The notes beneath the pieces are model-generated. The model was not told where the DNA came from and ran no database searches. It worked only from the letters and a program-made list of their open reading frames with translations. Below, one piece after another: positions 3,979 to 24,707 of a stretch of DNA of 25,161 nt; the first letter of the stretch is position 1, and each line of letters starts with the position of its first letter. The DNA comes from a virus. Taxonomy: Duplodnaviria; Caudoviricetes. A program made the translations under genes and the position numbers. The DNA lies in IMG/VR virus record IMGVR_UViG_3300033067_001831, positions 1-25,161 of that record; one strand, written 5' to 3'.

Positions 3979-4030
3979 GACGACGAGCTATCCTTCGTAA
4001 AGCCTGTACCTTTACAACCGAATAGCTGTG

Positions 4031-4084
4031 AGCGGGTGGCGGGAATCGAACCCGCGTATTGTGCTTGGGAAGCACATGTTCTAC
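4031..4084 (-). other. attP core: 3' fragment of tRNA-Gly(CCC)
   Basis: GTAGAAC-A-TGTGC-TTCCCAA-GCACA-ATAC-GCGGG-TTCGATT-CCCGC-CACCCGC-T; 5' acceptor/D strand absent; 18 bp from the integrase stop. Confidence 0.85.
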
Positions 4085-4102: not shown

Positions 4103-4924
4103 TTACCGCTTTAGCTTGGTCATGGGAAGCCACGGTCTCATTTTCTCCAGACGTAGGGCGCGTGTGTAGCGCGTGACCATCTGCGTAGACTTCCATCGTC
4201 CGCCCTCCATGATAAGCCTGTCTGGTGCGCCGCCTTCGCTTGCGATGGTGGCGAAGCCTCGGCGGAAGTCGTGAACGCCGAGCGTGACATGGATCGCCCT
4301 GCCCCATTCCCTGATAATCGAATATAGACCGCCTGGGGTCAGTCCATTACCTGTGACGGTTGAGACGAATAAGAAGCCCTGCGGGTTGAGTCGTTGCCTG
4401 AATAATTTCCAGTGTTCGATGTGCGCGGCGGTTTCCTCGCTAAAGATCGCAAATTCCCAACTACCGCCCTTGACCAATGCCTGTAAGATGCGCTTGTCTG
4501 TGTCTGTATCTGCTTGTTGCAGGTTGCAGATCTCGGACTCCCTGAGACCGGTGTCTATCAAGAGCGAAGCGATGGCAAGGTCCCTTGCACCTTTGGCGCA
4601 ATGACGGTCAAAGGACGCCAGTAATATTTCTGCGATTTCCTGCGTGAGAGTGCGCGGCATCTTTCCTCGGATGCGTTTGAGGCGGGCGGTTAGAGCGGGG
4701 TGAGATTGTCCATATTTCCAGGCTAAAAATTTTTGTGATGCTGCCAATGCGACGCATTGGCGCGAGTTCCCCCACCCTTTCGACTGAACAAGTGATAGTA
4801 ACCCCGACGCGCTGAGTGCGGCGGGGTCTTGAATGTGCGCGAATACCTGCGTGAGTACGTCCGCGTAGGTGCGCTTGGTGGTCTCTGCGTAGGGGTGAGA
4901 GTCTAAGAATGTGCGAATGTCCAT
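4103..4924 (-). CDS. int: Tyrosine recombinase/phage integrase (273 aa)
   Basis: RDLAI...DTGLRESE, VKGG, HDFRRGFAT, GRW, TRY catalytic motifs; AGGAG SD upstream of ATG 4924. Confidence 0.92.
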   Translation of the reverse strand: MDIRTFLDSHPYAETTKRTYADVLTQVFAHIQDPAALSASGLLSLVQSKGWGNSRQCVALAASQKFLAWKYGQSHPALTARLKRIRGKMPRTLTQEIAEILLASFDRHCAKGARDLAIASLLIDTGLRESEICNLQQADTDTDKRILQALVKGGSWEFAIFSEETAAHIEHWKLFRQRLNPQGFLFVSTVTGNGLTPGGLYSIIREWGRAIHVTLGVHDFRRGFATIASEGGAPDRLIMEGGRWKSTQMVTRYTRALRLEKMRPWLPMTKLKR

Positions 4925-5136
4925 CCGATATGTGCTCCTGAGTAAGAGTAGTGATGATCGGCGGGCGAATGCCCCCGTTATCTTCGCCGGTGAGACGGCG
5001 AAAAAAAATCTATGCGTGAAAGGTGGTGATGTGTACTGAATATGTAAGGTATCACCCACGACTGGCGGAGTCTGCGTTTCTACCAGTCGCGGGCAACAAA
5101 AACATTGTATCAAAAAAAATCTAAAAGGAGTCTAAT

Positions 5137-22019: not shown

Positions 22020-22048
22020 ATCTTAAAGGTAAATTCTGTTATTGTCAA
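22020..22048 (-). promoter_or_regulatory. Late promoter
   Basis: TTGACA-17-TAAGAT. Confidence 0.75.
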
Positions 22049-22258
22049 TATGTCATATGGGGCAACTAGGTTTTTGTAATGTTTTGAAGGGGGACTGTCC
22101 CAGGCGTGACCGGTTGTATTATGCGCCTCTGCGCCGTGGGGGTCGGCGCGTTTGGGGATCTGCGTTCGGCTGGCGAGCAGGACACAGCACACAGGATGCC
22201 AACAGACGAGAAGGCGGGGAGGGTGCCGGGAACCGCGCGCGGTGCCTTGCCAAAACGA

Positions 22259-22354
22259 AACACGCGCGGCAGGCTGATCGCCGCGCGTGTTGAGCGTGCC
22301 GGCTTGCGTATTTCCGCGAGCAGGCACGAAACCGCCCGCATTTCTGCGGGCGGT
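22259..22354. repeat. Three back-to-back hairpins; the last is terminator-like for the early operon
   Basis: AACACGCGCGGC..GCCGCGCGTGTT; CGTGCC..GCTTGCG..CGCGAGC.GGCACG; ACCGCCCGCA-TTTC-TGCGGGCGGT. Confidence 0.65.
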
Positions 22355-22375
22355 AGTTCGGCGGCGTGTGCGTCC

Positions 22376-22500
22376 GCTGAACGTTTGCTTTACCTGCGGG
22401 GCGCTTACGCGGAACCCGTGTCTAAAGCGTTCTGAATCATTTCGCGGACTTCTTCTTTTTGCAAGGGCGTAAGCCCCGTCAGGTGCAAGCCTTGTTCGGC
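22376..22500 (-). mobile_element. attC: Integron attC site 4
   Basis: GCCGAAC-AAGGC-TTGCACCTGACGGGG...CCCCGCAGGTAAA-GCAAAC-GTTCAGC. Confidence 0.85.
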
Positions 22501-22620
22501 GTCTGGCTCATTTTCGAGCATTACACCGATTTCATACCACAAGGTTTGCTTGATTACTTCTCTGCCTGTGCGATACCATTCGCGGCAGTAATACAAAACT
22601 TTTTCTTCCTGCTCACTCAT
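22405..22620 (-). CDS. Cassette C hypothetical protein
   Basis: SD GGAG; lies in cassette 22382..22643; stop inside attC4. Confidence 0.7.
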   Translation of the reverse strand: MSEQEEKVLYYCREWYRTGREVIKQTLWYEIGVMLENEPDAEQGLHLTGLTPLQKEEVREMIQNALDTGSA

Positions 22621-22637
22621 TTTGTTTTCTCCGTGAC

Positions 22638-22763
22638 GCCGAACGGCAAGCGTTACCCGCCGCCGATTGTAGCGGGCGACACTTCCGCCTGAATGTTACC
22701 AGGCAGGGGATTGACAGGACGCATACCTACGCCAAAGGCGGTCAGGTACACGCTTTGTTGGAA
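22638..22763 (-). mobile_element. attC: Integron attC site 3
   Basis: TTCCAAC-AAAGC-GTGTACCTGACCGCC...GGCGGCGGGTAAC-GCTTGCC-GTTCGGC. Confidence 0.85.
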
Positions 22764-23330
22764 AGCCAGAGAACCCCACTGTTGCGCCATTGCCTGAGCG
22801 ATGCCAGCAAATGTTTTGCTTCTTTCGCGCCACCTATCAGGCGAGGGCGGTAACTTATGAAGTCTCTGTTCTCTCCCTTCAACAATATTTGTCGGTTGTA
22901 AAAGTGGCAAGTTTTTCAGCCATAAACAAGTGGCTTTAGTTTCGCCATGCCCGAATTGCCAGGGCTGGATTATCTGCGAATATTTCACGCCGATAATTTC
23001 GCGTGCGTATTTGTGCATGATTGGATTTTCAATGGCGATATGTTCAATCGGCGCATGTAAAAGCATTTTGAAAAACTCTGCACCTTCGCGCATATCGTCC
23101 CAAAGATTACGCTTTTCAAGCCAACACACGCCAGAATTACAAAGGCGCGTACACGGCGGATGCGCTACCATCAAATCCCAATTCTCTGAAAGCATGTCAC
23201 GCACGTCGCCTTGATAGTGATTACCAGGGATTTCAGTAGGCAATAAATCACATGACCAGGCTTCATGCCCTAACGCTTCAAACTCTTTGCGGACTGCGCC
23301 GCTAAATTCGCAGGCTATCAAGACTCTCAT
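22653..23330 (-). CDS. Cassette B: short C5-cytosine DNA methyltransferase-like protein
   Basis: MRVLIACEFSG, SCD, WDLMVAHPPC (motif IV), IAIENP (motif VI); lies in cassette 22644..23344. Confidence 0.8.
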   Translation of the reverse strand: MRVLIACEFSGAVRKEFEALGHEAWSCDLLPTEIPGNHYQGDVRDMLSENWDLMVAHPPCTRLCNSGVCWLEKRNLWDDMREGAEFFKMLLHAPIEHIAIENPIMHKYAREIIGVKYSQIIQPWQFGHGETKATCLWLKNLPLLQPTNIVEGREQRLHKLPPSPDRWRERSKTFAGIAQAMAQQWGSLAFQQSVYLTAFGVGMRPVNPLPGNIQAEVSPATIGGG

Positions 23331-23338
23331 GCTCGGCT

Positions 23339-23431
23339 TTCCAACGGCGAGCATTACCTGCGCCGCGATTTTATAAGACTACTCAGTTTCAGCCGCAGAC
23401 TTAGCGGCGTCAGGTGCATGCAATGTTGGGC
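23339..23431 (-). mobile_element. attC: Integron attC site 2
   Basis: GCCCAAC-ATTGC-ATGCACCTGACGCCGC...GCGGCGCAGGTAAT-GCTCGCC-GTTGGAA. Confidence 0.88.
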
Positions 23432-23705
23432 GCGTTGATGGTTTCAAATAAACATTACCGCCAAACATTGCATTTACACGCTCAATACCCCAACCCTTCG
23501 GAATCGGAAATGACTGTTGCCATACCCATTCGTCACATTCTTCATTCGCGCCAAGAACAAAGATAGTATTATCTTCTTCAAGGCTTGTGCAAATTTCTGG
23601 AAAGTACCCGATGTCAAAATCTCCTTCTGCCTGAATGTCATCAAAGAACTTACCAAAATCATCTTCGTTGTAGTCGCCGTCTGACGGCTCATAATACGTT
23701 GCCAT
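23379..23705 (-). CDS. Cassette A: acidic hypothetical protein (108 aa, MATYYEPSDG)
   Basis: SD AAAGGAG before ATG 23705; lies in cassette 23345..23736. Confidence 0.75.
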   Translation of the reverse strand: MATYYEPSDGDYNEDDFGKFFDDIQAEGDFDIGYFPEICTSLEEDNTIFVLGANEECDEWVWQQSFPIPKGWGIERVNAMFGGNVYLKPSTRPTLHAPDAAKSAAETE

Positions 23706-23730
23706 ACTTTTCTCCTTTGCGCCACGAAGC

Positions 23731-23822
23731 GCCCAACGGCAAGCGTTAGTTGCCCGCCGAATTATTAGAATCACCACTGCCCACCAGAGCCGAAGGCGGG
23801 TCAACTGCACGCAATGTTCGGC
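23731..23822 (-). mobile_element. attC: Integron attC site 1 (phage-resident)
   Basis: GCCGAAC-ATTGC-GTGCAGTTGACCCGCC...GGCGGGCAACTAAC-GCTTGCC-GTTGGGC. Confidence 0.88.
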
Positions 23823-24018
23823 GGCGCTCAAGCCAGGCATCGCGCATTGCTCGTGCGGCTTCAAGGTCATCGGCAATTGTGGAATACAAGATGCCATCTG
23901 TGTGACGGTAATCATATTGCACACGGATAGGATGACCCTTTTTATTGCGATCTTCAAACTCAACATATTGCTCCCCGCCAATGGGGCAGATTGAAACTGT
24001 AGGCAAATGATTATTCAT
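23746..24018 (-). CDS. Hypothetical protein ending inside attC1
   Basis: SD AAGGAG; VQYDYRHTDG.LYS motif. Confidence 0.75.
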   Translation of the reverse strand: MNNHLPTVSICPIGGEQYVEFEDRNKKGHPIRVQYDYRHTDGILYSTIADDLEAARAMRDAWLERRRTLRAVDPPSALVGSGDSNNSAGN

Positions 24019-24036
24019 TGAAACTCCTTATATTTC

Positions 24037-24276
24037 TCATAATTCAAGATCGGGGGTTTTGATGTACCTTTTCCGCTTTGGTTTGATAACGACATCGGGC
24101 AGGACGTTCTTTACTGCCTTCTCGATTGCGATTTTTACCGCGTCGGTCTTGCTCATTTTATATACAGCATTTTCATTAAGTTTGTCAACCAACGCCATTA
24201 TTAAAATTTCGTAGTCTGATAGATCGGGGCGGGACTTCCGGCGACGGTGGCAGCCGTCGCCGGTTTTCTGTCTCAT
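24037..24276 (-). CDS. Small RHH-like DNA-binding protein
   Basis: MSKTDAVKIAIEKA helix; ATGA coupling. Confidence 0.55.
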   Translation of the reverse strand: MRQKTGDGCHRRRKSRPDLSDYEILIMALVDKLNENAVYKMSKTDAVKIAIEKAVKNVLPDVVIKPKRKRYIKTPDLEL

Positions 24277-24707
24277 GCCTTTCCTGTAACCTTGCGAGGC
24301 TGTGCCGTCTTTCCGTCTTCCTGCGGCGGGTTCATCAGTACGCGCGCGCGGATCGGCTCGATTTCGTTCGGTCCAGGCTTGAGCGTGGCGGGGTCAATGC
24401 CGAGGTTGGGAAACACTTCATCCCAGATGCGTACTCCGTGTTTTGTGTACGGTGCGCCTTTGGCTTTGTAGGCGGGTTTGCCTGCGTCGTCGTAGGTCAT
24501 AACGATGGAGTCAATGATCATTTCTCCGAATGTGCCGACGGCGGGCGGGGTGGCTGCGGTCTGCAAGCCTCCGCGCATGGCGTGGAGTTCGCTTTTCACT
24601 TCGAGCATTTCAGTGGCGAGTTCGTCGAAACGATTTTCCATCTGAGTGAATAGTTCGCGGATTTCGGCGGCGGTGATGCGGTCGGGTGCGGGGGTTGGGG
24701 TGGTCAT
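24273..24707 (-). CDS. Hypothetical protein (N-terminal coiled coil)
   Basis: 144-aa ORF packed in the operon. Confidence 0.7.
   Translation of the reverse strand: MTTPTPAPDRITAAEIRELFTQMENRFDELATEMLEVKSELHAMRGGLQTAATPPAVGTFGEMIIDSIVMTYDDAGKPAYKAKGAPYTKHGVRIWDEVFPNLGIDPATLKPGPNEIEPIRARVLMNPPQEDGKTAQPRKVTGKA

Follow-up and report, generated by a model that had tools for sequence, protein, structure and literature searches.

The window analyzed here, i.e., the whole stretch of 25,161 bp, comprises the entire IMG/VR virus record IMGVR_UViG_3300033067_001831 (Duplodnaviria; Caudoviricetes), a contig rated 100% complete. Genes encoding terminase subunits, a portal protein, a capsid-protease, a tail-like protein, and a tyrosine recombinase could be recognized (Pfam, PHROG), and the window represents a temperate phage with relatives that reside in Chloroflexota genomes. 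All 10 terminase relatives encountered in GTDB (42-53% identity) fall in Chloroflexia or Anaerolineae MAGs, and the phage host is therefore probably a member of the Chloroflexota, judged solely via these relatives. Among annotated phages, 12 partial matches to the window were found, none of which covers the array described below or any attC site. ARAGORN detected no tRNA or tmRNA genes in the window. Positions 3995-4056, which adjoin the recombinase gene, look by eye like a tRNA 3' half with the anticodon CCC, a possible attachment site, and also gave a short Rfam tmRNA match (E 5e-4) for which ARAGORN called no gene.

At the end of a minus-strand gene run lies an array of four attC sites and their reading frames. 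Consensus scanning placed behind it a hairpin resembling a terminator and a site resembling a promoter, the latter for the packaging genes (Table 1). Positions 22040-22330 are non-coding and GC-rich, contain several hairpins, and are conserved in part in L001, L002, L004, and L005. No Pc-like cassette promoter was identified by consensus scanning.

Table 1. Features of the cassette array and of related elements in the window. Coordinates of attC sites read from R'' to R'; the window minus strand is the top strand.
Feature	Position	Strand	Basis
79-aa gene without family match, 5' anchor of the slot	24037..24276	-	7/7 IMG/VR relatives: attI-like site and attC cassettes right behind
Junction where relatives have the attI-like site; here a ribosome-binding-like motif alone	24019..24036	-	Alignment with 9 relatives
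DUF3873 ORF, 90 aa, running into attC A; cassette without 5' core	23746..24018	-	PF12989 E 1e-12
attC A (92 bp), G of G|TT at 23737	23822-23731	-	Arm-pairing scan, folding, core comparison
Cassette 1 (392 bp): 108-aa ORF (23379-23705), no known family, and attC B	23345..23736	-	9-bp end complementarity
attC B (93 bp), G of G|TT at 23345	23431-23339	-	Arm-pairing scan, folding, core comparison
Cassette 2 (701 bp): DNA-methyltransferase-like ORF (22653-23330) and attC C	22644..23344	-	phrog_757 E 1e-63, 11-bp end complementarity
attC C (126 bp), G of G|TT at 22644	22763-22638	-	Arm-pairing scan, folding, core comparison
Cassette 3 (262 bp): 71-aa ORF (22405-22620), no known family, and attC D	22382..22643	-	10-bp end complementarity
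attC D (125 bp), G of G|TT at 22382	22500-22376	-	Arm-pairing scan, folding, core comparison
Terminal gene-less GTT...AAC element (27 bp) and GC hairpin	22331..22381	-	Common to L001, L002, L004, L005; absent in L008
Terminator-like hairpin ending the co-oriented gene run	22259..22291	-	Consensus scan alone
Promoter-like site TTGACA-17-TAAGAT, facing the packaging genes	22020..22048	-	Consensus scan alone
Xer-like tyrosine recombinase of the phage (no IntI), ~17 kb away from the array	4103..5113	-	PF00589 E 2e-19

Architecture of the attC sites

A preliminary description of the sequence had proposed four sites of 92-126 bp with attC architecture on the minus strand, and all of their coordinates hold. 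The sites were evaluated with our own arm-pairing scanner, which requires an AAC followed by a spacer and by paired arms that contain two extrahelical bases, as well as a GTT. At a score of at least 12, sites A-D and nothing else were retrieved from both strands of the window, and no site was retrieved from 200 kb of shuffled sequence (8 x 25 kb); the pairing fractions of the sites are partly circular, because the scanner itself selects for pairing. The four sites share a common geometry, with spacers of 4 and 5-6 nt (counted in our own register), 3 bp, an extrahelical C, 6 bp, and an extrahelical T. In PMC5027507, attC sites are characterized by pairing of the R boxes, an unpaired central spacer of 5-6 nt per arm, a first extrahelical base that is usually G, a conserved extrahelical T, and a length of 57-141 bp. 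Sites A-D agree with this account in the pairing of R'' AAC with R' GTT, the presence of the spacer, the two extrahelical bases placed 6 bp apart, and their length, whereas their first extrahelical base is C, as it is in 19 of 27 host sites of the same geometry.

Free folding of the bottom strands recovered the full R-box/spacer/L-box hairpin for sites A, B, and D, whereas the R box of site C remained unpaired, such that folding supports three sites and the fourth less so. The z-scores of whole-site folding are modest and amounted to -0.9, -1.3, -0.8, and -3.0 for A, B, C, and D, respectively, and an Rfam search of the window returned chance-level matches, none of which was relevant to attC. 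The complementarity between the 5' core of each of the three complete cassettes and the inverse core of its own attC, over 9, 11, and 10 bp, was found as initially stated. Moreover, in 40 adjacent pairs of phage attC sites, R'' agreed with the 5' core of its own cassette at 5.8 of 7 nt versus 3.4 for the next core, and 5000 permutations yielded values of at most 4.15.

A CALIN was defined as several attC sites on the same strand, spaced by less than 4 kb, without intI nearby. The four sites lie within 1.45 kb and, in agreement with the proposed absence of IntI, a TIGR02249 search of this record, which is rated 100% complete, gave no match, which makes the window array a CALIN by definition. 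Two elements of a complete integron, intI beside the array and attI at its head, are both lacking in the window.

Reading frames and cassette content

Two features had been missed in the preliminary description. All four upstream ORFs continue through R'' and L'' into the attC, with stop codons located 49-107 nt past the AAC, and the DUF3873 gene ahead of site A represents a fourth cassette that lacks its 5' core. Of five close relatives of the DUF3873 protein (78-88%), four have tails that by eye resemble an attC translation, and two of these four differ from the tail in the window; since tails differ between copies of one gene, the attC-coded tails need not be functional. Among 80 distant viral homologues of the DUF3873 gene, none is followed by an attC. 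The ORF of cassette 2 encodes 225 aa, ~190 of which precede the attC, and its predicted methyltransferase activity rests on PHROG and GenBank labels, because a PDB sequence search returned nothing below E 0.18. No usable ESM Atlas match was obtained for the cassette 1 protein. The terminal GTT...AAC element is probably a decayed oldest cassette. The same or a near-identical 5' leader with a ribosome-binding motif precedes unrelated ORFs at positions 23709-23737 of the window, 156-186 of L004, ~9042 of L056, and 2467 and 2861 of L288.

A conserved attI-like site in related phages

The slot is anchored at its 5' end by the 79-aa gene, for which searches of Pfam, PHROG, and NCBIfam gave no match and the ESM Atlas no usable one. 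Directly behind this gene, the conserved site ATGTACATTCCGCNNAAANMMTAG|TT was found in nine of nine aligned relatives (seven of seven viral relatives, as well as L008 and L097), and cassettes start after it. The window itself contains no such site when up to 3 mismatches are allowed, and its eight GTTs in positions 23830-24300 score -12 to -19 on the attI-like profile. The initial claim that the array is without attI is thus correct for the window and incorrect for its relatives. Because the family has a conserved attI-like site, the array in the window has probably been derived from one with a docking site; in the simplest reading, the site probably disappeared together with the 5' core of the first cassette through a short deletion or replacement. 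The idea that the empty site consists of a single self-complementary attC, in which R'' of A and the last core would agree at 8 of 9 positions, was dropped, since the relatives contain the attI-like site and complete first cassettes.

A pattern scan of IMG/VR yielded 32 stretches, 22 of which are followed by attC cassettes (including two near-duplicate pairs), while one is cut off and nine appear chance-like. In 17 of the 22 loci the first core agreed with the first detected R'' at 9 or more of 12 positions; the relatives thus contain a non-palindromic site that ends with G|TT and at which the first cassettes join. The exact phage pattern is absent from 251 host genomes. When scored on the phage profile, 11 host attI sites had a mean of -3.5 versus -14.6 (sd 6.7) for random GTTRR sites, with 6 of the 11 above the 95th percentile, and the likeness between the phage and host sites is loose and may stem partly from A+T richness. 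In L288, the ORF ahead of the attI-like site (2225-2467) displays 38-44% identity to a small ORF between intI and attI in the host integrons L129, L131, L133, and L146, a similarity that hints at an origin of some phage docking sites from host platforms. Some phage contigs carry two attI-like sites or two arrays (L090 and L103, L095 and L106, L097/L177).

Cassette turnover

Canonical attC sites that are located upstream of the packaging genes and co-oriented with them were found at 9 of 39 viral terminase loci and at none of the 10 GTDB terminase loci; many of the viral and GTDB loci are short, and several long viral ones have no such site. The cassette set differs in almost every relative. 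The 81% identity between L002 and the window extends through the 79-aa gene to its end, is interrupted by unrelated cassettes, and resumes at the right arm of the last attC. L004 and L005 are 93% identical along a 12.9-kb stretch that terminates at the last attC arm, upstream of which they are unrelated. Related phages thus differ in their cassettes, with junctions at G|TT or within the right arm that ends there.

Individual cassettes recur elsewhere as well. Cassette 1 was found in L288 as a 399-bp match (90% identity) bounded by G|TT on both sides, where it is the first cassette and begins at the G|TT right after the attI-like site; it is the sole gene common to the last 6 kb of the window and the 5.3 kb of L288 that were compared. 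Homologues of cassette 2 in L093 (86% nt and 91% aa identity) and L179 have the same starting core, different neighbors, and different attC bodies, and identical pieces of 483-532 bp occur in contigs of runs X2-X4. Identical pieces of cassette 3 are likewise present, the contigs with pieces of the two cassettes coming from three other studies, and in run X6 one contig matches this cassette up to position 22644 and another down to 22383, after which both diverge into other sequence. Run X1 was excluded from the recurrence analysis, because it matches the window without differences and may derive from the same source; for runs X2, X3, X4, and X6, cover outside the array is near zero, and missing contig cover was not counted as evidence. 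Contigs of X2, X3, X4, and X6 that match attC B (window 23341-23432) depart at its R'' end, such that near-identical attC bodies are placed behind other genes.

In these comparisons the units behave as integron cassettes, in that the 5' core is complementary to the own R'' and a unit bounded by G|TT recurs at other locations. The proposal of a plug-in slot for accessory genes is supported, with relatives holding different cassettes between conserved flanks and the same cassettes found elsewhere with ends at G|TT, and on the basis of sequence comparison the slot is a real exchange point.

Candidate recombinases

The recombinase of the window is only weakly similar to an Anaerolineales IntI, with no IntI insertion in the alignment. 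A PF00589 gene is absent from three of the five complete phages that contain the attI-like site and cassettes, and for these phages the enzyme must come in trans. Of 251 genomes of the host order, 84 contain an IntI gene above the TIGR02249 cut-off (265 bits), as does one of five MAGs that carry a terminase relative; among 30 related viral records there is a single IntI-like gene (L097; 257 bits, below the cut-off). A host IntI acting in trans is a plausible recombinase of the array and was ranked first because it is far more common than phage-borne IntI.

Genes of the IntI family that share 56-100% identity were found in four phage lineages (L097/L177, L178/L179, L180, and L181), and by eye they contain the catalytic residues and the IntI insertion. 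They begin ~30 nt or less past an attC G|TT, co-oriented and beside phage genes; the coordinates noted in these loci are 880-1908 in L097, 1867-2871 in L178, 426-1433 in L180, and 2327-3349 in L181. In a quick tree, from which L133 (158 aa, internal stop) was left out, the four lineages cluster (SH-aLRT 93) as sister to the host-type integrons L182-L187, with long branches that meet. Viral contigs L167-L176 contain IntI with 29-36% identity; in six of these, attC sites lie upstream and are arranged divergently, as is usual, and the quick tree unites nine of the contigs in a single clade.

Phage and host cassette pools

The reading frame extends into or past the attC in 46 of 60 phage cassettes versus 9 of 74 host cassettes, as called by one automatic ORF picker in small samples and with some wrong picks, and the associated Fisher p of 1e-14 overstates certainty because the cassettes are non-independent. 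Phage cassettes are shorter (median 370 bp versus 745 bp), and DNA modification functions were assigned to 10 of 60 phage cassette proteins (nine methyltransferases and one Mom-like protein) versus none of the 65 host proteins of at least 90 aa that were scanned for such functions. No protein is common to the 60 phage and 74 host cassettes. At the level of the attC bodies, phage and host sites are up to 92% alike, and the same attC type is found beside host intI genes. The sharing of attC bodies by unrelated genes was considered as a phage peculiarity and rejected, as 87 of 109 such pairs are host-host pairs. A phage-type read-through cassette is present in a host-type integron (L187, 54-353) and a host-type nucleotidyltransferase cassette in a phage (L073, 6085-6873), which may reflect cassette exchange in both directions.

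Discussion

The array is best explained as a cassette slot that ends a co-oriented phage gene run and whose cassettes vary among related phages and join at G|TT; its likely recombinase is an IntI from outside the phage, most likely one encoded on the chromosome of an Anaerolineae host. Judged from sequence data, we assign this reading a probability of roughly 0.6. Single-stranded attC hairpins would form during phage replication or in the prophage state, IntI would excise cassettes as circles, with the attI-like site past the 79-aa gene as their point of insertion, and inserted cassettes would be transcribed along with the upstream phage genes, with methyltransferase cassettes offering protection against restriction. 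In the window array, which has no attI-like site, loss or swapping of cassettes through attC x attC recombination would still be feasible, and uptake at the head would be gone.

The cassettes could instead be recombined mainly by an IntI clade that phages encode, the donors being co-infecting or resident phages in which intI immediately follows the final attC. The co-oriented IntI genes just past an attC G|TT in four phage lineages that cluster in the quick tree (SH-aLRT 93) argue for such a source, as do the presence in L179 of the methyltransferase cassette family of the window, the attI-like site that L097 shares with the relatives, and the dissimilarity of the phage and host cassette pools. 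We nevertheless consider it unlikely to be the main source, since only 1 of 30 related viral records contains an IntI, at 257 bits versus a cut-off of 265, compared with a third of the host genomes, and long branches meet in the tree that groups these enzymes. The Xer-like tyrosine recombinase of the phage is the sole recombinase found in the window genome, and in L097 an Xer-like gene begins right past the last attC; it is highly improbable that this enzyme moves the cassettes, as it has neither an IntI match nor an IntI insertion, its gene lies distant from the array beside the tRNA-like attachment site recognized by eye, three of five complete cassette-bearing phages have no PF00589 gene, and the attC sites of the window are of the host IntI type.

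Two further explanations were considered. The phage could passively carry either a fragment of a host integron or a small number of host cassettes that had been inserted by chance at some genomic site (attG). Off-target insertion of cassettes is documented in 10.1101/2022.09.11.507474, the window has no attI, host-like phage cassettes exist (the L073 nucleotidyltransferase, with an attC 92% like a host site), and in L288 a host integron-associated ORF precedes the attI-like site. Yet the docking site is conserved at a fixed place behind one phage gene, the cassettes behind it differ in almost every relative, and the phage cassettes are short, read into the attC, and hold phage-type methyltransferases in the proportions given above, so that passive carriage has little to recommend it for the window and is already largely refuted at the family level. 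Homologous recombination between conserved attC arms might exchange cassettes with no integrase needed today, and the breakpoints in L004/L005, L002/window, and L093 can be located no more precisely than to the conserved right arm, which is 20 nt long and ends with G|TT, and one gene was found with different attC bodies. Such a process would scarcely account for cassette 1 of L288, which starts at a G|TT preceded by an attI-like site with no attC arm in common, or for first cassettes behind the attI-like site that match their own R'' and for the retained end complementarity. Recombination by an IntI from outside, most likely of host origin, thus remains the preferred reading.

The occurrence of an attC array in a phage is already known, since Qi et al. 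(2023) reported 17 CALINs of virulent and uncharacterized phages in 10,705 genomes, suggested off-target or illegitimate capture, and observed that IntI1 recombined 5 of 6 phage attC sites (PMC9892861). The present array resembles those CALINs as an attC cluster without intI, with co-oriented ORFs and DNA methyltransferase cassettes, and TJE1 from that study shares with the window a short inverted GTT...AAC motif at the array boundary. In the available part of PMC9892861 there is no conserved attI of a phage family, comparison of relatives, or cassette recurrence in another phage, all of which are present here, and its supplement contains neither 'Chloroflex' nor 'Anaeroline'. A literature search that lay mostly outside subscription journals yielded no description of phages that combine a conserved attI-like site with cassette turnover among relatives, nor of phage IntI genes behind arrays. 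At the level of the family, the system is a putative integrase-less attI platform.

The sedentary integrons of Anaerolineales (L107, L112, L117-L146, L182-L207) have the same attC geometry, near-identical arms, end complementarity, and a loosely similar attI; in contrast to the phage arrays, they carry a divergent intI beside attI and longer cassettes, 65 of 74 of which stop before or in R'', and share no protein with the phage pool. SALINs and small CALINs that arise by attG insertion (10.1101/2022.09.11.507474) likewise illustrate that cassettes can end up distant from any integron through IntI in trans, whereas the phage slot is a conserved insertion point reused across many phages and not a scattered target. 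Integrons with an inverted integrase are described for Treponema by Cury et al. (2016; PMC4889954); in the phage loci intI lies directly behind the last attC of an array, and the window has no intI. Translated attC sites can still recombine, as was reported for synthetic attC sites in coding sequences (Nivina et al., 2020; PMC7439510); the overlap was synthetic in that work, whereas in the phages it is natural and the rule, with tails that vary between gene copies.

In the literature available to us, integrons are seen as bacterial devices and lately as stores of anti-phage genes, and phage attC arrays are reported as rare captures. A phage group with a fixed landing site and cassette turnover would represent one catalyzed route to phage genome mosaicism. 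Many phage cassettes encode enzymes of DNA modification, which would help the phage against restriction, so that bacteria and phages would both be served by one recombination system. To our knowledge, it is an open question how gene cassettes arise. DUF3873 and phrog_757 are ordinary in other phages and are fused here to an attC without a stop codon of their own, which bears on the origin of cassettes. More tentatively, and on balance doubtful, Anaerolineae phages may possess an integron economy of their own, with a fixed docking site behind one phage gene, a pool of phage-gene cassettes whose final codons lead directly into an attC, and an IntI of phage lineage that is carried by a minority and borrowed by others. 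If this is true, phage mosaicism at the slot would be site-specific and catalyzed, and phages would be a place to study the making of new cassettes.
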